From assembly GCF_003334385.1 (NCBI RefSeq), contig NZ_QOWN01000042.1: DNA of 38,068 nucleotides; one strand, given 5' to 3'. Made by a program: the position numbers and the translations under genes. Numbering within the stretch: the first letter of the stretch is position 1; each line of letters starts with the position of its first letter. This document shows positions 23,673-38,068 of this stretch, one piece after another. The notes beneath the pieces were generated by a model that was not told the DNA's origin, searched no databases, and was given only the letters and a program-made list of their open reading frames with translations. The stretch is from Escherichia coli. Lineage in GTDB: Bacteria > Pseudomonadota > Gammaproteobacteria > Enterobacterales > Enterobacteriaceae.

Positions 23673-24662
23673 ATGAAACTCGCCGTTTATAGCACAAAAC
23701 AGTACGACAAGAAGTACCTGCAACAGGTGAACGAGTCCTTTGGCTTTGAGCTGGAATTTTTTGACTTTCTGCTGACGGAAAAAACCGCTAAAACTGCCAA
23801 TGGCTGCGAAGCGGTATGTATTTTCGTAAACGATGACGGCAGCCGCCCGGTGCTGGAAGAGCTGAAAAAGCACGGCGTTAAATATATCGCCCTGCGCTGT
23901 GCCGGTTTCAATAACGTCGACCTTGACGCGGCAAAAGAACTGGGGCTGAAAGTAGTCCGTGTTCCAGCCTATGATCCAGAGGCCGTTGCTGAACACGCCA
24001 TCGGTATGATGATGACGCTGAACCGCCGTATTCACCGCGCGTATCAGCGTACCCGTGATGCTAACTTCTCTCTGGAAGGTCTGACCGGCTTTACTATGTA
24101 TGGCAAAACGGCAGGCGTTATCGGTACCGGTAAAATCGGTGTGGCGATGCTGCGCATTCTGAAAGGTTTTGGTATGCGTCTGCTGGCGTTCGATCCGTAT
24201 CCAAGTGCAGCGGCGCTGGAACTCGGTGTGGAGTATGTCGATCTGCCAACCCTGTTCTCTGAATCAGACGTTATCTCTCTGCACTGCCCGCTGACACCGG
24301 AAAACTATCATCTGTTGAACGAAGCCGCCTTCGAACAGATGAAAAATGGCGTGATGATCGTCAATACCAGTCGCGGTGCATTGATTGATTCTCAGGCAGC
24401 AATTGAAGCGCTGAAAAATCAGAAAATTGGTTCGTTGGGTATGGACGTGTATGAGAACGAACGCGATCTATTCTTTGAAGATAAATCCAACGACGTGATC
24501 CAGGATGACGTATTCCGTCGCCTGTCTGCCTGCCACAACGTGCTGTTTACCGGGCACCAGGCATTCCTGACAGCAGAAGCTCTGACCAGTATTTCTCAGA
24601 CTACGCTGCAAAACTTAAGCAATCTGGAAAAAGGCGAAACCTGCCCGAACGAACTGGTTTAA
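23673..24662 (+). CDS. ldhA: Fermentative NAD-dependent D-lactate dehydrogenase
   Basis: 329-aa D-2-hydroxyacid dehydrogenase ORF (GxGxxG motif GVIGTGKIG). Confidence 0.9.
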   Translation: MKLAVYSTKQYDKKYLQQVNESFGFELEFFDFLLTEKTAKTANGCEAVCIFVNDDGSRPVLEELKKHGVKYIALRCAGFNNVDLDAAKELGLKVVRVPAYDPEAVAEHAIGMMMTLNRRIHRAYQRTRDANFSLEGLTGFTMYGKTAGVIGTGKIGVAMLRILKGFGMRLLAFDPYPSAAALELGVEYVDLPTLFSESDVISLHCPLTPENYHLLNEAAFEQMKNGVMIVNTSRGALIDSQAAIEALKNQKIGSLGMDVYENERDLFFEDKSNDVIQDDVFRRLSACHNVLFTGHQAFLTAEALTSISQTTLQNLSNLEKGETCPNELV

Positions 24663-28700: not shown

Positions 28701-29256
28701 TACGCAATGCTATTCCAACACCGGTGGTCAGGCGTCGAAAGCGACACCGCTGGGTGCAGTAACTAAATTTGGCGAGCACGGCAAACGTAAAGCGCGTAAA
28801 GATCTTGGCGTCAGTATGATGATGTACGGTCATGTTTATGTGGCGCAGATTTCTCTCGGCGCGCAGCTGAACCAGACGGTGAAAGCGATTCAGGAAGCGG
28901 AAGCGTATCCGGGGCCATCGCTGATCATTGCTTATAGCCCGTGTGAAGAGCATGGTTACGATCTGGCACTCAGCCACGACCAGATGCGCCAACTCACAGC
29001 TACCGGCTTCTGGCCGCTATATCGCTTTGATCCGCGTCGTGCCGATGAAGGCAAACTGCCGCTGGCCTTGGATTCACGCCCGCCGTCAGAAGCACTGGAA
29101 GAAACGTTACTTCACGAGCAACGTTTCCGTCGGCTGAATTCGCAGCAGCCAGAAGTGGCAGAACAGTTATGGAAAGATGCTGCAGCTGATTTGCAAAAAC
29201 GCTATGACTTCCTGGCACAAATGGCCGGAAAAGCGGAAAAAAGCAACACCGATTAA
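25732..29256 (+). CDS. ydbK: Pyruvate:ferredoxin/flavodoxin oxidoreductase (single-polypeptide PFOR with two 4Fe-4S ferredoxin motifs and TPP domain)
   Basis: 1174-aa ORF; CxxCxxCxxxCP motifs (CTQCNHCVAACP, CTGCNLCVEVCP) and C-terminal TPP-binding region. Confidence 0.9.
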   Translation: MITIDGNGAVASVAFRTSEVIAIYPITPSSTMAEQADAWAGNGLKNVWGDTPRVVEMQSEAGAIATVHGALQTGALSTSFTSSQGLLLMIPTLYKLAGELTPFVLHVAARTVATHALSIFGDHSDVMAVRQTGCAMLCAANVQEAQDFALISQIATLKSRVPFIHFFDGFRTSHEINKIVPLADDTILDLMPQVEIDAHRARALNPEHPVIRGTSANPDTYFQSREATNPWYNAVYDHVEQAMNDFSAATGRQYQPFEYYGHPQAERVIILMGSAIGTCEEVVDELLTRGEKVGVLKVRLYRPFSAKHLLQALPGSVRSVAVLDRTKEPGAQAEPLYLDVMTALAEAFNNGERETLPRVIGGRYGLSSKEFGPDCVLAVFAELNAAKPKARFTVGIYDDVTNLSLPLPENTLPNSAKLEALFYGLGSDGSVSATKNNIKIIGNSTPWYAQGYFVYDSKKAGGLTVSHLRVSEQPIRSAYLISQADFVGCHQLQFIDKYQMAERLKPGGIFLLNTPYSADEVWSRLPQEVQAVLNQKKARFYVINAAKIARECGLAARINTVMQMAFFHLTQILPGDSALAELQGAIAKSYSSKGQDLVERNWQALALARESVEEVPLQPVNPHSANRPPVVSDAAPDFVKTVTAAMLAGLGDALPVSALPPDGTWPMGTTRWEKRNIAEEIPIWKEELCTQCNHCVAACPHSAIRAKVVPPEAMENAPASLHSLDVKSRDMRGQKYVLQVAPEDCTGCNLCVEVCPAKDRQNPEIKAINMMSRLEHVEEEKINYDFFLNLPEIDRSKLERIDIRTSQLITPLFEYSGACSGCGETPYIKLLTQLYGDRMLIANATGCSSIYGGNLPSTPYTTDANGRGPAWANSLFEDNAEFGLGFRLTVDQHRVRVLRLLDQFADKIPAELLTALKSDATPEVRREQVAALRQQLNDVAEAHELLRDADALVEKSIWLIGGDGWAYDIGFGGLDHVLSLTENVNILVLDTQCYSNTGGQASKATPLGAVTKFGEHGKRKARKDLGVSMMMYGHVYVAQISLGAQLNQTVKAIQEAEAYPGPSLIIAYSPCEEHGYDLALSHDQMRQLTATGFWPLYRFDPRRADEGKLPLALDSRPPSEALEETLLHEQRFRRLNSQQPEVAEQLWKDAAADLQKRYDFLAQMAGKAEKSNTD

Positions 29257-29284
29257 ATGCTCTGGATAAGGATTATCCAATTCT

Positions 29285-29316
29285 AAAAAAAAAAGCCCGG
29301 ACGACTGTTCGGGCTT
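29285..29316. terminator. Bidirectional intrinsic terminator shared by ydbK (+) and micC (−): A-run, agcccgg/ccgggct hairpin, T-run
   Basis: Hairpin with flanking A10 and T5 runs read directly. Confidence 0.75.
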
Positions 29317-29396
29317 GTCTTTTTATATGTTGGAAAATCAGTGGCAATGCAATGGCCCAACAGAAAATAAAATCTGTGACAATAAAGGCATATAAC
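29287..29396 (-). ncRNA. micC: MicC small regulatory RNA (Hfq-dependent repressor of ompC translation)
   Basis: Minus strand reads GTTATATGCCTTTATTGTCACAGATTTTATTTTCTGTTGGGCCATTGCATTGCCACTGATTTTCCAACATATAAAAAGACAAGCCCGAACAGTCGTCCGGGCTTTTTTTTT, matching the MicC sequence as I recall it; located between ydbK and ompN as described for micC. Confidence 0.85.
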
Positions 29397-29623
29397 CCGC
29401 GCAGAATAACGTATAGCAAATTAAAAGTATAATTTTTATTTTGTATGTATTATCTTCGATACATTCACCAGACTTATTATCATTTCAGAGGAATTATTTG
29501 ATTAAGGTTTTACTTAAGGCGTAACAAATGATATTTATCGGCTAACTGAACTTCTCCTTTAGGATGTTTTCACTCCCCGAAATGGGGATAAAAGGCAAAT
29601 AAAATAACTAAAGGATTTATTCA

Positions 29624-30757
29624 ATGAAAAGCAAAGTACTGGCACTTTTAATTCCTGCCCTGCTCGCCGCAGGTGCTGCACATGCAGCCGAAGTTTATAA
29701 TAAAGACGGCAACAAATTAGATCTGTATGGCAAAGTTGATGGCCTGCATTATTTTTCTGATAATTCAGCGAAAGATGGCGACCAGAGCTATGCGCGTCTG
29801 GGTTTTAAAGGCGAAACCCAAATTAACGATCAACTCACTGGCTACGGTCAATGGGAATACAATATTCAGGCAAACAACACTGAATCTTCAAAAAACCAGT
29901 CATGGACCCGTCTGGCATTTGCCGGGCTGAAATTTGCAGATTACGGTTCTTTCGATTACGGACGTAATTATGGCGTAATGTACGACATCGAAGGCTGGAC
30001 CGATATGCTGCCTGAATTTGGCGGTGACTCTTATACCAATGCAGACAACTTTATGACTGGTCGAGCCAATGGCGTCGCGACTTATCGTAATACTGATTTC
30101 TTCGGTCTGGTAAATGGTCTGAACTTCGCGGTGCAGTATCAAGGTAACAACGAAGGAGCCAGTAATGGTCAGGAAGGCACCAACAACGGACGTGATGTTC
30201 GCCATGAAAACGGTGACGGCTGGGGTCTTTCCACAACATATGATTTAGGCATGGGCTTTAGCGCTGGTGCGGCATACACCTCTTCTGACCGCACCAATGA
30301 CCAGGTTAACCATACTGCGGCGGGTGGTGATAAAGCAGACGCGTGGACTGCTGGGCTAAAATACGATGCTAACAATATTTACCTGGCAACCATGTATTCA
30401 GAAACGCGTAATATGACCCCGTTTGGCGACAGCGATTATGCTGTGGCAAACAAAACCCAGAATTTTGAAGTCACTGCACAGTACCAGTTTGATTTTGGTC
30501 TGCGTCCGGCAGTCTCTTTCCTGATGTCTAAAGGCCGTGACCTGCACGCTGCGGGTGGTGCAGACAACCCGGCAGGTGTTGATGATAAAGATCTGGTTAA
30601 ATACGCCGATATTGGCGCGACTTACTATTTCAATAAAAACATGTCCACCTACGTTGACTATAAAATCAACCTGTTGGATGAAGATGACAGCTTCTACGCT
30701 GCCAATGGCATCTCTACCGATGATATTGTCGCTTTAGGTCTGGTTTATCAGTTCTAA
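29624..30757 (+). CDS. ompN: Outer membrane porin N (OmpC/OmpF-family general porin)
   Basis: 377-aa ORF with signal peptide ([21 protein letters not shown]) and C-terminal ...LVYQF beta-barrel signature. Confidence 0.9.
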
Positions 30758-30765
30758 ATCCTCCT

Positions 30766-30789
30766 GCCCGCTGTTATGGCGGGCTTTTT
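30766..30789 (+). terminator. Rho-independent terminator after ompN (gcccgc / gcgggc stem, T5)
   Basis: Hairpin plus T-run 8 bp after the stop. Confidence 0.7.
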
Positions 30790-30816
30790 CTGCTTATTCT
30801 TCCTCCTTTGATCTAA

Positions 30817-31332
<516 letters not shown>

Positions 31333-31339
31333 CACTAAC

Positions 31340-31364
31340 GCCCGCACATTGCTGCGGGCTTTTT
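31340..31364 (+). terminator. Rho-independent terminator after uspF (gcccgca / tgcgggc stem, T5)
   Basis: Hairpin plus T-run 8 bp after the stop. Confidence 0.7.
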
Positions 31365-31660
31365 GATTCATTTCGCAAATGTGCTGACATTTTCCCCTCT
31401 AATCCGTACCATACACGCCACAGTTTTTTATATCAGATTTCTTATGCTGGGCGTTCCGGCATGACGCATACTCTTCTGATGCCATATAACGAATTGAGTC
31501 GCTTTTAAATGTCGCAAAATCAAGAAATTAGTAAGAAAGAACAATACAACCTGAACAAGTAAGGGCAAAAATCACAACTCTCTGACTCATAAGTATTTTA
31601 CTTATTTTTCAATGTGTTAAATATCATCAGCGACAACAATAAGCTACGATAACCCACTCT

Positions 31661-31710
31661 TTTTTTGCCCCTTTTTTGCCCCTTTTGCAGCGCTTTGCCC
31701 CATTTTTGCC
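31661..31710. repeat. Degenerate ~11-bp tandem repeat (TTTTTTGCCCC ×2, then TTTTGCAGCGC, TTTGCCCCA, TTTTTGCC) in the uspF–sitA intergenic region
   Basis: Read directly. Confidence 0.6.
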
Positions 31711-31822
31711 ATCAACAATTTTCCTCATCAAGTCATTTCAAAGCCTAATAGGTACCCTACTTTTTTCCTCAGTACCACGTCGCCAGCAGGAAACAACCTA
31801 ATCCCGGTTCGGATCTAAAATT

Positions 31823-31841
31823 GCTAATGATAATCATTTTC
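31823..31841. promoter_or_regulatory. Fur box (gCTAATGATAATCATTtTC; 17/19 match to GATAATGATAATCATTATC) in the sitA promoter
   Basis: Match to the canonical Fur consensus ~80 bp upstream of sitA. Confidence 0.7.
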
Positions 31842-31863
31842 ATTTTGTGTTGCTTATGCTATA

Positions 31864-31885
31864 AAACATAGCCGTTGCTATGTTT
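31864..31885. promoter_or_regulatory. MntR operator: perfect palindrome AAACATAGC-cgtt-GCTATGTTT between the Fur box and the sitA start
   Basis: Matches the MntR box palindrome described for mntH/sitA promoters (from memory). Confidence 0.7.
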
Positions 31886-31917
31886 GTTCTAATTTTGCTC
31901 ACTATAGGTACTAAATT

Positions 31918-32832
31918 ATGTACTCAATAAAAAAAGTAACCATGCTCTTGGGGTGCCTCGCCCTCACCTGCTCGATCGCATTTCAGGCGAGTGCAACTGA
32001 AAAATTCAAGGTCATTACAACATTTACCATCATCGCAGATATGGCCAAAAACGTGGCTGGAGATGCTGCAGAAGTCTCATCCATAACCAAGCCCGGTGCA
32101 GAAATTCATGAGTATCAGCCTACCCCTGGCGATATTAAACGTGCGCAGGGGGCACAACTGATTCTCGCCAATGGTATGAATCTGGAATTGTGGTTCCAAC
32201 GCTTTTACCAGCATCTTAATGGGGTTCCAGAAGTAATTGTCTCTTCGGGTGTGACGCCAGTAGGGATCACTGAAGGCCCCTATGAGGGCAAACCTAACCC
32301 CCATGCCTGGATGTCGCCAGATAATGCTCTGATTTACGTCGATAATATTCGTGATGCGTTGATAAAATACGATCCGGCAAATGCACAAACCTACCAACGT
32401 AATGCCGATACTTATAAAGCCAAGATTACCCAAACCCTTGCCCCCCTGCGTAAGCAGATTGCTGAACTCCCTGAGAATCAGCGATGGATGGTCACCAGTG
32501 AAGGGGCTTTTTCTTATCTCGCACGCGATTTGGGGCTAAAAGAGCTTTATCTGTGGCCGATTAATGCCGATCAACAAGGCACGCCGCAGCAGGTACGTAA
32601 GGTTGTTGATATGGTGAAGAAAAATCATATCCCGGCAGTCTTTAGCGAGAGTACGATTTCCGATAAACCAGCGCGTCAGGTTGCGCGTGAAACCGGCGCG
32701 CACTACGGCGGTGTACTCTATGTCGATTCCCTGAGCACAGAAAACGGCCCGGTACCTACGTATATCGACCTTCTGAAGGTTACTACCAGTACGCTGGTAC
32801 AGGGAATTAAAGCCGGGAAAAGGGAGAAATAA
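31918..32832 (+). CDS. sitA: Periplasmic Mn2+/Fe2+-binding protein of an ABC importer (cluster A-I substrate-binding protein)
   Basis: 304-aa ORF with signal peptide; first of four translationally coupled genes in SBP–ATPase–permease–permease order. Confidence 0.85.
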
Positions 32833-33659
32833 TGATGCAATCTGCGGGCATTGTCGTTAATGATGTTACTGTCACCTGGCGTAACGGGCACACAGCACTG
32901 CGCGATGCATCCTTCACAGTACCAAGTGGATCTATTGCCGCTCTGGTTGGGGTAAACGGTTCCGGAAAATCGACGTTGTTTAAAGCGATTATGGGATTTG
33001 TGCGTCTGACCAGCGGAAAGATATCTGTTCTGGGTATTCCCACGCGACAGGCGCTACAGAAAAACCTGGTTGCCTACGTCCCTCAGTCAGAAGAGGTTGA
33101 CTGGTCATTTCCTGTACTAGTGGAAGATGTGGTGATGATGGGCCGCTATGGGCACATGGGTATGTTGCGTATAGCCAAAAAGAGGGATCGTCAGATTGTC
33201 ACCGATGCGCTGGAACGTGTCGATATGGTGGATTTTCGCCATCGACAAATCGGCGAGCTTTCCGGTGGACAAAAGAAACGCGTCTTTCTGGCGAGAGCGA
33301 TTGCACAGCAGGGTGATGTGATCCTGCTGGATGAACCTTTTACCGGCGTTGATGTGAAAACCGAAGCGAAAATCATCAGCCTGTTGAGGGAGTTACGCGC
33401 GGAAGGCAAGACGATGCTTGTCTCAACGCACAATCTCGGCTCAGTCACGACATTTTGCGATTATACGGTCATGGTCAAAGGCACCGTCCTGGCAAGCGGG
33501 CCGACAGACACCACTTTTACAGCCGAGAACCTGGAGCTGGCTTTTAGCGGCGTACTGCGCCATGTCACACTTAACGGCTCGGAAGAAAGCATTATTACTG
33601 ACGATGAACACCCTTTTGTGGCACATCGACCGTCAGCGGTGCAGAGGGAAGCAAGATGA
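32832..33659 (+). CDS. sitB: ABC transporter ATP-binding protein (Walker [10 protein letters not shown], signature LSGGQKKR, Walker B ILLDEP)
   Basis: 275-aa ORF; motifs read directly. Confidence 0.85.
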
Positions 33660-34513
33660 ACGTGCTACTGGAACCCTTCAGCTATGAATATATGCTCAAT
33701 GCGATGTGGGTCTCGGCGATGGTCGGCGGTCTCTGCGCTTTCCTGTCATGCTATCTGATGCTAAAAGGCTGGTCGCTGATTGGCGATGCGCTGTCGCACT
33801 CTATTGTCCCGGGTGTTGCGGGGGCATATATGCTGGGGCTTCCGTTTTCTCTGGGAGCCTTCTTTTCCGGCGGACTGGCAGCGGGCAGCATGCTGTTTCT
33901 TAACCAACGCACTCGCTTAAAAGAAGATGCCATCATCGGCCTGATCTTCTCCTCCTTTTTTGGCCTGGGGCTGTTTATGGTGTCATTGAACCCGACATCC
34001 GTGAACATTCAGACCATCGTCCTGGGCAATATTCTGGCAATCGATCCGGCGGATATCCTGCAACTCACTATCATTGGCATTCTCTCGATCATCGTGCTTT
34101 TTTTCAAATGGAAAGATCTTATGGTGACCTTTTTCGACGAGAATCACGCCCGTGCTATTGGATTGCATCCGGGCAGATTAAAAATCCTCTTCTTCACCCT
34201 GCTGTCAGTTTCGACCGTTGCGGCGCTGCAAACGGTTGGTGCCTTTCTGGTGATCTGTCTGGTGGTGACTCCCGGTGCAACAGCATGGTTGTTAACCGAT
34301 CGTTTTCCCCGCCTGCTCATAATTGCTGTAACTATTGGCAGTGTAACCAGTTTCCTCGGCGCGTGGGTCAGTTACTTTCTGGACGGCGCGACAGGTGGAA
34401 TCATCGTGGTGGCGCAGACACTGCTGTTTCTTTTAGCATTTGTATTTGCGCCCACCCATGGGCTTTTGGCAAATCGTCGGCGTGCGCATAAAGCGCTGGA
34501 GGATCGCTCATGA
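33656..34513 (+). CDS. sitC: ABC transporter permease (Mn/Fe importer)
   Basis: 285-aa hydrophobic multi-helix ORF; ATGA overlap with sitB. Confidence 0.85.
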
Positions 34514-35367
34514 TGGCATTATTACTGGAGCCACTGCAGTTCACCTTTATGAGTCACGCACTGCTGATTTCACTGGTAGTTTCCATACCCTGTGCGCTGC
34601 TGTCGGTCTTTCTGGTCCTGAAAGGTTGGGCACTGATGGGTGACGCGATGAGTCATGCGGTTTTTCCTGGTATTGTGCTTGCCTGGATTCTGAGGTTACC
34701 TCTGGCTACAGGGGCATTCGTCGCCGGAGTATTCTGCGCGGTGGCGACGGGATACCTGAAAGACAACAGCCGAATCAAGCAAGATACAGTGATGGGGATT
34801 GTTTTTTCTGGCATGTTTGCCGCAGGTCTGATCTTGTATATTGCAGTCAAACCAGACGTACATCTTGACCATATTCTTTTCGGCGACATGCTCGGGGTAA
34901 CCATCGGCGATATAATCCAGACGGTGATTATTGCCGGGCTGGTTACACTTGTTATTAGCGTAAAATGGCGGGATTTTTTGCTGTTCAGCTTTGATTATCA
35001 ACAGGCGCAGGTAAGCGGTTTGCATACGAGATGTCTGCATTATGGGCTGCTGTGCATGGTCTCTCTGACCATTGTGGCGACGCTGAAAGCGGTAGGTATC
35101 ATTCTCTCCATTTCTCTGCTCATTGCGCCTGGCGCCATTGCGGTACTCCTGACACAACGCTTTCATATTGCGCTCCTACTGGCGATTGGCATATCGGTAA
35201 TAGTGTCAATGACTGGTGTCTGGTTGTCCTTTTTTATCGACAGTGCACCAGCTCCGACGATTGTCGTCTTATTCGCGGTTGTGTTCATCATGACGTTCAC
35301 CGTTACCAGCATCAACGCACGCACAAAGGGAAACACCCATACACAGGATTTGTCATCACCCAATTAG
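34510..35367 (+). CDS. sitD: ABC transporter permease (Mn/Fe importer), paralogous to SitC
   Basis: 285-aa hydrophobic ORF; ATGA overlap with sitC. Confidence 0.85.
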   Translation: MMALLLEPLQFTFMSHALLISLVVSIPCALLSVFLVLKGWALMGDAMSHAVFPGIVLAWILRLPLATGAFVAGVFCAVATGYLKDNSRIKQDTVMGIVFSGMFAAGLILYIAVKPDVHLDHILFGDMLGVTIGDIIQTVIIAGLVTLVISVKWRDFLLFSFDYQQAQVSGLHTRCLHYGLLCMVSLTIVATLKAVGIILSISLLIAPGAIAVLLTQRFHIALLLAIGISVIVSMTGVWLSFFIDSAPAPTIVVLFAVVFIMTFTVTSINARTKGNTHTQDLSSPN

Positions 35368-35531
35368 CACAACATCCGAGGACAGCATCGTCCGCTGGCC
35401 CACAGAAGTCCGGAAAGTCATGGAAGGTCGTTGTTGGGAGGAGGTACAAATTCTCTCATGCAAAAAATACGTAAAATCGATAATAGCTGGAAATAATTCA
35501 ATACATGCACTCTCGAAAGTGCATCAGCCAA

Positions 35532-35565
35532 CCGCAGAACGTTATTGCATACAACGTTTCTGCGG
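35532..35565. other. Imperfect inverted repeat (ccgcagaacgtt ... aacgtttctgcgg) in the short sitD–tfa spacer; possible terminator or junction element
   Basis: Read directly; no clear U-tract. Confidence 0.3.
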
Positions 35566-35579
35566 CATAATCCCAATGA

Positions 35580-36164
35580 TTACTCCCTGACAGGGTTCGT
35601 AGGCCACTCAATATCAGGTGCAGTTGATGTATCAACACGGTTCAGCAACACCCGATACTTTTTCCAGGCTTCCAGCAACAAGGTTTCTTCCTCCGTTGCG
35701 ATTTCCAGATCTGCAGCATCCTGAAGCGGCGCAATATGCTCACTGGCTACCTGCATCAGGCTGTTTTTTGTTTCTTCCGCCTCCCGGATCCGGAACAGTT
35801 TTTCTGCTTCTGCATCTTTCACCCAGGCTGTGCCGTTCCACTTCTGAAACTCCCCTTCCGGGGATAACCAGGTAACATTTTCCGGTAACGGACCGAGTTC
35901 AGAAATAAATAACGCGTCGCCGGAAGCCACGTCATAGACGGTTTTTCCCCGATGATCTTCAACGAGATGCCACGATGCCTCATCACTGTTGAAAACAGCC
36001 ACGAAGCCTGCCGGAATATCTGGTGGTGCAATATCGGTACTGTTTGCTGGCAGACCTGTATGAGGCGGAATATATGCATCACCTTCACCAATAAATTCAT
36101 TAGTTCCGGCCAGCAGATTATAAATTTTTATGGTCCGTGCTTGTTCACTCATTCTGAATGCCAT
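35580..36164 (-). CDS. tfa: Phage tail fibre assembly (chaperone) protein, Tfa family (TfaR-like)
   Basis: 194-aa [27 protein letters not shown]..., closely resembling lambdoid Tfa proteins as I recall them; ATG overlaps the stf stop (TAATG). Confidence 0.8.
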
Positions 36165-38068
36165 TATGCGAGCCTCACAATATAGTTAAATGCGATGTTT
36201 TTGACGGTGTTTTCCGCGTTACCAGCAGCGTTAACGGTGATGGTGTGTCCATGTGAACCAATCGCAACAGAGTGCGTATGAGCACCAATACCGACAGTAT
36301 GCGCGTGTGCACCCGCAGATGCTGCTGTGCCGGACAGTGAGTGTGTATGGTTTCCTTCTGAAGATGATTTACCTACCCATTGGGAGGTGCCACTGGTTAA
36401 TGAGCCACTGATACCAACCTGATTAGTCCCGCTAACTTGAGTACTCCCTGCCGGAAACATTCCAGTAGGTTGACTCCCGCTATTCGTTCTGGGCCCAGTC
36501 TGACTATGTTGGTGGGCCCCAGCTGAACTTGTAGAGCCGCTCAGACTGTGCGTATGCGCCCCGGTGTTATTCGTGGATTTAGTGCCGTAATCAAACGACG
36601 ATGTGGTTTTCGTCCCCAAATCCGTACTGGATGCGCTGGCGCTGTGGGTATGCGATTTAATGCCGTCCTGTTCCTGAGACAATACGGCCCGACCACTGGC
36701 AGGTTTGCCCTTAATCGTCCAGCCACGCATATCAGGGATCACGCCTGACGGATAAGCCGCTGCAAGTTTCGGGTATGCAGATTTGTCAAAAGCCTGCCCC
36801 TGCATCAGGGCATAGCCAGACGGAACGGTATCTGATGGCCACGGGATTGGTGCGCCAGGCGGATAAAACTGCTCTGATGGCGTATAGAGTGAATAAACTG
36901 TACCGTCCGTTAACCCTTCCGGCTTATTAGCAGAATATGCTGGTGACGTATGAATCGTCACGCTGGCATTACTGGTATAATCCCATTGAATATTTACACC
37001 AGTCGCATAATTTCCGATTGCAACGTAAATATCGTAAGTATCACCAGATGTATTAACCCAGGCAAAATTTGTAAACCCTGTCAATGTGCGCTGCCATAAA
37101 GCACCAGTAATCCCCTTCGGATTACCATTACCTGCACGCAAAACAAGTTCAGATATACCTGCCTGTTGAGGTGACCCCACGTTAAATCCAGCGCCACCAA
37201 TCAACGTAATTGAAACAACAGAACTCGCCTGTGGCATGGTTACCGTTGCTAATTTGAACCAACCAGCACCACCGCTGAATGACATTGTTGTTGAGTTAAG
37301 CGTACCAATATCTTTCGGCGTCAGTGTTATATCAGCTGAAAGCGCCTTACCATTCACCTTACGGGCAGAAGGTACCCGACCATTCGCATTATCATTAGCT
37401 GCTTTCACTGCTTTCGGTGTCGCGGCAAGCGTTTCAGATGCGCTGTTGGTTGCACTACTGAGCTGGACAATTCCTTTTTGTGTTGTCGTAGCGTCCTGAG
37501 CAGTATATTTCCCGTTAGCAAGGTCATAGGCTGCCTTTACCGACTTTGGCGTTGCCGCCAGCATTTCAGATGTGCTGTTGGTCGCGTTGCTAAGCTGAAC
37601 TATCCCTTTCTGTGCTGTCGTTGCATCCTGTGCGGTGTATTTCCCGTTAGCCAGCTCATACGCGGCCTTAACGGCTTTTGGCGTTGCCGCCAGTGACTCG
37701 GAAGTGCTGTTAGTCGCACTGCTGAGCTGTACTATCCCCTTTTTCGTCGTGCTCGCATCCTCAAGCGCCACGGAGGATGCAATATCCTCTGCCCATTTTG
37801 CCGCTGTCTCAGCGCGCGTTGCTGCAGATTCCGCCGTACTTTTGCTCTGAGCTGCTGCCGTCGCACTGCCAGCAGCCTCTGTCGCCTTCGTGGATGCCGT
37901 CGTGGCGCTACCCTTCGCTGCTGACGCCTGTCTGGTCGCCTCATCTTTTGAAGCAGACGCAGATGATGCCGATGACGACGCCGAACTGGCTGACGATGCG
38001 GCAGCCGTTTTTGAGGATTCTGCGCTGGTTTCCGACGCTTTCGCGTTCGTTTCGGATGTCTTCGCTGC
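36164..38068 (-). CDS. stf: Phage side tail fibre protein (StfR-like), C-terminal ~635 codons; 5' end lies beyond the window
   Basis: Listed ORF 36164..37771 starts at a GTG; the frame stays open to the window edge (…[25 protein letters not shown]… Ala/Ser/Thr-rich repeats). C-terminal part is Gly/Ser/Thr-rich with multiple His-x-His motifs. Confidence 0.8.
37400..37771 (-). repeat. Three tandem ~123-bp (41-aa) repeats inside stf (…[44 protein letters not shown]…)
   Basis: Repeats visible in the translation and nucleotide sequence with period ~123 nt. Confidence 0.7.

Follow-up and report, generated by a model that had tools for sequence, protein, structure and literature searches.

The 38,068-nucleotide stretch of Escherichia coli DNA analysed here (contig NZ_QOWN01000042.1 of assembly GCF_003334385.1; "the window" in the following) contains, towards its right end, a 212-bp spacer between sitD, the last gene of the sitABCD metal transporter operon, and the convergent tail fibre assembly gene tfa. 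Very probably, the last ~6.5 kb of the window are the right-hand part of a lambdoid prophage of the Rac family, which has ttcA as its integration site (5' end of the gene) and carries sitABCD as a moron, and the spacer is an internal joint of that prophage. In an earlier, sequence-only reading the spacer had been taken for the point where a prophage, made of tfa and a tail fibre gene alone, ends abruptly next to chromosomal sit genes.

Prophage boundary and the sit cassette

The order of genes along the window is paa genes, tynA, feaRB, ldhA, ydbK, MicC, ompN, uspF, sitABCD, tfa, stf. The boundary was searched by comparing positions 31440-31960 with 5426 complete E. coli genomes. Many of them match 31440-31558 only, at 100%, under ttcA: an example is O104:H4 2009EL-2050, where the prophage-free order is ompN-uspF-ttcA-dbpA. 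In many others, homology to the window extends to 31711-31718 and is lost from there on. Because empty-site genomes match only to 31558, the junction between chromosome and prophage is placed at 31558/31559, in the interval that separates uspF from sitA. The window is thus prophage from 31559 onwards, and the true prophage end, adjoining uspF, lies 3.8 kb past the 212-bp gap. The features of this region are listed below.

31509-31559, + strand: ttcC', a displaced ttcA start of ~17 codons, left at the right junction of the prophage; prophage-free genomes start ttcA at the equivalent of 31509
31516-31558, no strand: attachment (att) core, the attR copy of a 43-bp direct repeat, which recurs in the 5' end of ttcA beside intR (attL)
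31559-31711, no strand: right (P') arm of a Rac-family prophage, 153 bp, ~99.5% identical to the right end of K-12 Rac
31712-31917, + strand: putative sit promoter/operator region, from motifs read in the sequence
31918-32832, + strand: sitA
32832-33659, + strand: sitB
33656-34513, + strand: sitC
34510-35367, + strand: sitD; sitABCD is a Mn/Fe ATP-binding cassette (ABC) transporter operon, carried as prophage cargo

The 51 bp of ttcC' are annotated in K-12 as the pseudogene ttcC. At attL, the 43-bp core is found with 93% identity in K-12 and 91% in strain LR-51. When compared to K-12 by BLAST, window positions 29001-31711 are 99.85% identical, through ompN, uspF, ttcC and 152 bp of annotated Rac; for 31300-31711 (K-12 locus L003, 26218-25807), covering uspF, ttcC and the same 152 bp, identity is 99.5%. 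Integration in the 5' end of ttcA, with a duplicated ttcA start and core repeat, and a right arm and stf/tfa genes homologous to those of Rac, place the prophage in the Rac family. Within the arm, four close-set TTTTGCCCC/TTTGCCCC/TTTTTGCCA repeats are found at about 31657-31711, kept in K-12, with K-12 homology stopping directly after them; the TTTTGCCCC-type repeats are candidate integrase arm-type sites. Outside the prophage, the MicC small RNA (sRNA) gene is found at 29279-29399 (- strand; 122 bits), between ydbK and ompN, as in K-12.

Identification of the sit genes is based on open reading frame (ORF) calls, on the annotation of near-identical relatives by the Prokaryotic Genome Annotation Pipeline (PGAP), and on NCBIfam metal ABC transporter matches for SitA and SitD. 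They are the only genes in 31559-35579, in agreement with the lack of invertase, integrase or other phage ORFs noticed from sequence alone. The same reading had placed them on the chromosome side; the att core and the Rac arm, however, lie beyond sitA, and sitABCD is therefore prophage cargo. Since it lies within the limits of the prophage and is also carried by isolated phages, the operon is best described as a moron, that is, cargo serving the lysogen rather than the phage.

The 3.7 kb cassette is not marked by any tRNA or compositional break. Its positions 31705-35396 are 96.7% identical to the sit region of ColV-type plasmids, and in 26 records of lambdoid phages a sit locus is found with 97.5% identity to 31735-35387; among them are the classic phage 21, ev017, 1H12, 4A7, ev207, Perceval and the PhiR phages. 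Control signals expected of a moron may be recognized on both sides. Upstream, a Fur-box-like sequence, GCTAATGATAATCATTTTC, is located at 31823-31841 (17 of 19 positions match the consensus), and the palindrome AAACATAGCcgttGCTATGTTT, flagged by a scan, at 31864-31885; the latter resembles an MntR box of the kind present in mntH and sitA operators. Downstream, a conserved stem-loop is found, lacking a T-run in the window copy.

Literature reports agree with a phage location for sit. According to Mathieu et al. 2020, sitABCD, always with a fur box upstream, is carried by 70% of the lambda phages that E. coli from the infant gut release, and is their commonest virulence-type moron (PMC6969025). 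The operon is also listed as a moron of Perceval, a prophage of strain LF82, where the sit genes are transcribed above the prophage background (PMC9928086). Papers on BEN2908 and EC958 give nothing on sit location.

Relatives of the prophage and comparable phages

Strain LR-51, 99.3% identical to the window over 31300-36200, shows the prophage continuing past 38068. Past stf, its order is: lom, J, tail, head, terminase, trkG, lysis, the iteAS defence pair, ydaSTUV, racR, sieB, kilR, recET, ralR, xisR, intR, ttcA. With ~52.6 kb from core to core, this is a lambdoid prophage of the Rac family in full length, and its right end is located at attR instead of the spacer. The apparent reduction of the window prophage to two tail genes is solely due to the window stopping at 38068. 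In LR-51, the region 13177-16570 of locus L002 features the iteA/iteS anti-phage pair, trkG, and partial tolA-like and ynaK pseudogenes.

Among the 5426 complete genomes, the attR-sitA junction is present in 502 (~9%), and the sitD-spacer-tfa junction in 305.

The cryptic Rac prophage of K-12 (stfR-tfaR-pinR-ynaE-ynaM-attR/ttcC-uspF) shares with the window the ttcA site, the 43-bp core, the right arm (99.5%) and homologous stf and tfa genes. It differs, being a 23-kb remnant, from the ~52.6-kb relatives of the window, which feature head, tail and lysis genes. The main difference is in the segment next to the arm: K-12 homology is interrupted after 31711 and found again from 35602, at 13 bp from the tfaR stop, so that 1832 bp, containing pinR-ynaE-ynaM, correspond to 3890 bp of the window (31712-35601), containing sitABCD with its flanking DNA. 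In the window tfa, the last ~7 codons and the 3' flank resemble lambda/DLP12 and not Rac. The idea of a replacement thus holds for the pinR region, in comparison with K-12 Rac, while neither a prophage end nor a truncation is located at the spacer, with the att core and right arm found beyond sitA at 31516-31711.

The tail genes at the inner side of the spacer are the following.

35580-36164, - strand: tfa, tail fibre assembly gene of TfaR/lambda orf-194 type, 194 aa (PHROG 105, E 3e-100)
36164-38068, - strand: 3' part of a side tail fibre gene of stfR type, running past the window (PHROG 295, E 3e-196)

Both genes were matched by PHROGs, while no family was found for either in NCBIfam. From 35602, tfa is 96% identical to K-12 tfaR, and the same identity extends over 35602-36349 to tfaR and the 3' end of stfR; 35530-36200 are 94.7% identical to lambda tfa and 51 bp downstream. 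The tail fibre ORF of 535 aa in the original list is an artefact of the start-codon requirement; the LR-51 homologue measures 2961 bp. Similarity of stf to K-12 stfR and to the LR-51 gene is mosaic, with 36380-36518 unmatched. Inside stf, at 37428-37738 (- strand), a 132-bp unit is repeated 2.4 times in tandem (79% matches), encoding a repeated protein motif. An Rfam match to IS009 (RF02111; 226.9 bits, gathering score 117) falls at 35623-35821 (- strand), wholly inside the tfa coding sequence, and weaker copies are found beside tail fibre genes in mEp460 and in one IMG/VR locus: this "RNA family" may simply be conserved tfa coding DNA.

Lambdoid phages carrying sit (phage 21, ev017/1H12/4A7, Perceval) have the cassette at 97.5% identity, between tail or tail fibre genes and att/int, and oriented toward the tail genes, as in the window. 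They differ in integrase and att: in ev017, sit lies between the tail genes and the icd'-int end, with an icd fragment beside int. Cassette limits differ slightly as well, 31735-35387 for these phages and 31712-35396 for the window.

The lambda b region (att-ea59-ea31-[element]-ea47-[hairpin]-tfa) is also similar, both in the spacer (83%) and in tfa with its downstream 51 bp (94.7%), with sit in the place and orientation of ea59-ea31. In lambda, however, ea47 lies between two copies of the second spacer hairpin described below, while the window has a single copy and no ea47. The window looks like a lambda b region with sit in place of ea59-ea31, from which ea47 would have been removed between the hairpin copies.

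A comparable design is found in lambdoid prophages of enterohaemorrhagic E. coli (EHEC). In PPyecE_EH1910 (att repeat-dinI-element-nleC-tail fibre), cargo again lies between the tail fibre gene and att, with the same element after dinI, but it is a type III secretion system effector gene, in contrast to the transporter operon of the window. The term "exchangeable effector loci" is said to have been used by Tobe and co-workers in 2006.

The spacer and its stem-loop

Coordinates of the spacer, 35368-35579, between sitD (34510-35367, +) and tfa (35580-36164, -), and the presence of two inverted repeats within it had been correctly seen from sequence alone. The following parts may be distinguished.

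35368-35396, + strand: tail of the mobile sit cassette, 29 bp; plasmid homology ends at 35396, phage-21-type homology at 35387
about 35414-35566, + strand: conserved non-coding element of lambdoid b regions, 3'-untranslated region (UTR)-like, ending in hairpin 2; recognized by phage homology and by covariance model R1 (120.6 bits)
35505-35524, no strand: inverted repeat 1 (hairpin 1), arms 35505-35514/35515-35524, 7-bp stem, lineage-specific
35532-35565, + strand: inverted repeat 2 (hairpin 2), 12-bp stem with one bulged T, CCGCAGAACGTT...AACGTT(T)CTGCGG; conserved stem-loop, putatively of the terminator family

The element (35416-35566) is 83% identical to lambda 24161-24308, a non-coding stretch between ea31 and ea47, and 78-85% identical to copies in phi458, ev017, Chlobot, mEp460 and relatives of Stx phages. 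In ev017 (L010 2501-2632 / L014 25678-25809) it is found upstream of sitA, cut in the loop of hairpin 2, and overlaps the start of the sit cassette by 6 bp: a different joint, made with the same element. It often begins directly after a dinI-like stop codon.

The 81-nt stretch containing both inverted repeats folds better than all of 200 shuffled sequences, on both strands (z -4.7 and -3.8). Conservation of the two hairpins was evaluated on homologues collected from IMG/VR, by a scan anchored on 22 nt of the conserved block upstream of the hairpin, which was itself left unselected: 120 loci were found, corresponding to 84 distinct sequences. The anchoring inflates the apparent conservation of the element. 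Alignment A1 was used; A2, where the bulge column is misplaced, was set aside.

Hairpin 2 is clearly conserved: 91.4% of cells are paired, 10 of the 12 pairs feature compensatory changes, and none of 500 shuffles reaches the observed values. When the partner is slid by 1-3 columns, pairing falls to ~30-40%. Many of the pairs are U-G, valid only on the sit-sense strand, and become A-C mismatches on the other: such strand-specific pairs point to an RNA structure, transcribed in the same sense as sit, dinI and ea31. Hairpin 1, in contrast, is lineage-specific: 58% of its cells are paired, and its outer four pairs are mostly unpaired.

The hairpin 2 consensus is followed by TTT; most members have TTT(T), with a mean T count of 5 in the next 10 nt. 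Copies are also found in lambda, where two flank ea47, at the right end of K-12 Rac (one copy, followed by TTTTT), in DLP12 (one copy, after tfaD), and in strain 405. With the covariance model derived from the alignment, a second copy is located in strain 405, following a DinI-like gene, and in lambda, following ea47. Three strains (200177, ET565 and 405) keep sitD and the spacer to 35565, followed by a T-rich tail, and then by an extra cargo gene before tfa. Breakpoints of homology, in six independent comparisons, fall at 35525/35528/35530 and 35565/35566, namely at both edges of the stem-loop. The extra cargo found at the Rac site, between the sit stem-loop and tfa, consists of a Bcr/CflA efflux pump of the major facilitator superfamily (MFS; L135 5132-6334), a sensor diguanylate cyclase (L136 4823-6154), or a hypothetical gene with a frameshifted DinI-like gene (L004 6573-7643).

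As expected of a rho-independent terminator, hairpin 2 is a stable, G+C-rich stem kept by selection, and most likely it is a terminator.

Some observations weigh against parts of the proposed picture. The window copy of hairpin 2 has no T-run, because it abuts the tfa flank: it is followed by CATAATCCC on the + strand, at the tfa side, and by TTGGCTGATG on the - strand. A terminator scan did not call it, and this copy may terminate poorly. As for the prophage itself, the window ends inside stf, and no complete genome in the collection fully matches its 6.8-kb end; identity reaches 97-99% in the best relatives, which differ from it in a mosaic fashion within stf. Furthermore, the exact Rac-type sitD-tfa joint is not present in any isolated phage of the phage collection: the sole phage record with it, ON032529.1, is apparently a mis-bounded prophage prediction. 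This record ("Salmonella phage SPF_0923", L007) is 99.7-100% identical to the window region. Since ydbK, ompN and uspF of the host are part of it, it would be an E. coli prophage, rather than an isolated Salmonella phage.

A few other readings of the spacer were considered and discarded. Coding capacity (ORFs of 56 and 52 aa) is contradicted by indels of 1-4 nt in the homologues, and by a change from ATG to ATA in ev017. The known prophage sRNAs AgvB and AsxR sit at the PR' moron site, not at the spacer. Pas was also considered as a candidate; the Pas preprint is silent on dinI, tail fibres and sit. Separately, the sequence CACAACAT is found at 35368-35376, directly after the sitD stop, within the part common to plasmids and phages. 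It is the consensus target motif of the GcvB sRNA seed, as quoted in PMC4104026; its presence may be due to chance.

A regulatory role of the element is unlikely, yet keeps some weight: the ~100-150 nt might constitute a regulatory RNA, either derived from a 3' UTR or independently transcribed and travelling with the cargo, and not merely a terminator. Both the loop TTCTTGCATACG and the ~65 nt preceding the stem are at least 90% conserved across phages with unrelated flanks, which would be needless for a plain terminator, although the 22-nt anchoring inflates this figure; the frequent position of the element directly after a dinI-like stop would also fit. No Rfam family, however, matches the spacer element, the only hit being a weak partial one to CssrB, on the opposite strand (31.7 bits, compared to a gathering score of 76). 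In addition, no conserved promoter precedes the element, and the window copy lacks a U-tail. Weak partial matches to CssrB, a Shigella chromosome-encoded sRNA, are found at 24-32 bits (again versus 76) in L030 379-435 (-), L013 905-963 (-) and L021 343-402 (+); those of L030 and L013 are on the other strand than hairpin 2.

Much less probable is that the inverted repeats act at the DNA level as recombination sites, either as crossover sites of a lost Pin/Din invertase, or as targets of a cassette-specific recombinase. The clustering of mosaic breakpoints at the edges of inverted repeat 2, the single cargo genes flanked by its copies in lambda and strain 405, and the presence of pinR at this position in K-12 Rac may all be taken in its favour. 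But covariation preserves the pairs of the stem, G-U pairs are valid on one strand, and a T-run usually follows: these features fit an RNA structure better than a protein-bound DNA site. No recombinase gene is found nearby: there is no serine invertase gene beside tfa in 31559-38068, where relatives annotate only sitABCD, tfa and stf. A scan for AAACCnnGGTTT-type crossover sites, such as the 26-bp ones that would bound an invertible stf/tfa segment, was also negative over 35000-38068, a weak test, since the K-12 stfR-pinR region scores negative too and the pattern is maybe too strict.

Finally, a prophage truncated or replaced at the spacer, with sitABCD outside it as a chromosomal or independent island, is hardly tenable. 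It would account for the lack of phage genes between sitD and uspF, for the missing pinR region, and for the occurrence of sit on plasmids and at other chromosomal sites, such as the "PAI sit" pathogenicity islands of Shigella flexneri and E. coli, whose sites form four insertion clusters (review PMC7545054), but it is contradicted by the position of the att core and of the 153-bp Rac arm, both beyond sit, by empty sites joining 31558 straight to ttcA, without sit, by the absence from the window of any insertion sequence (IS), integrase or flanking repeat associated with the cassette, and by bona fide phage genomes with the cassette at the same relative position. According to the same review, in "PAI sit" itself sitABCD is found together with phage genes, its chromosomal site varies, and homologous recombination has rearranged it (PMC7545054). 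The "abrupt end" seen from sequence alone is a misreading of an internal module joint.

Proposed cargo exchange at the stem-loop

The preferred reading is that of a Rac-family prophage with sitABCD as internal cargo. Its order, going inward, is: attR core, 153-bp arm, sitABCD with its own, putative Fur/MntR-type operator, the 212-bp joint, and then tfa and stf, transcribed toward sit. The operon occupies the equivalent of the lambda b region, between tail fibre genes and att, where K-12 Rac has pinR-ynaE-ynaM. The spacer consists of the 29-bp cassette tail, followed by the conserved 3'-UTR-like element, closing in a stem-loop of a probable terminator family. Boundary, synteny and cassette limits are shown by the analyses, as are the conservation and covariation of this stem-loop, and its recurrence at the ends of single cargo units in many lambdoid phages. 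The stem-loop is likely to terminate transcription of the sit operon, as an intrinsic terminator, and to do the same for other cargo of the b region. Through homologous recombination between its copies, cargo could then be added, removed or swapped: in the window lineage, the sit-side copy would have been fused directly to the copy located 14 nt past the stop codon of tfa, from which the short convergent joint of 212 bp would result.

A Rac-family prophage with a sitABCD moron is an ordinary arrangement, already described; the covarying stem-loop at the boundary is modestly new. A further step, tentative and on balance rather unlikely, is to consider the ~120-150-nt element as a dedicated cassette-boundary module of lambdoid b regions, acting either as an RNA that derives from a 3' UTR and has a sequence-specific loop, TTCTTGCATACG, or as a linker where recombination preferably occurs; it would travel with cargo such as sitABCD, dinI, ea47, nleC, the MFS pump and the diguanylate cyclase, and shuffle it. 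If so, it would represent an undescribed RNA family, as no Rfam family matches it.

With the boundary corrected, sitABCD, a recognized fitness and virulence factor involved in Mn/Fe uptake, is mobile on a prophage, and would leave with it on excision, of which the window prophage may be capable. The stem-loop, where cargo units of the b region appear to begin, end and recombine, may in turn offer a handle on cargo exchange among lambdoid phages.

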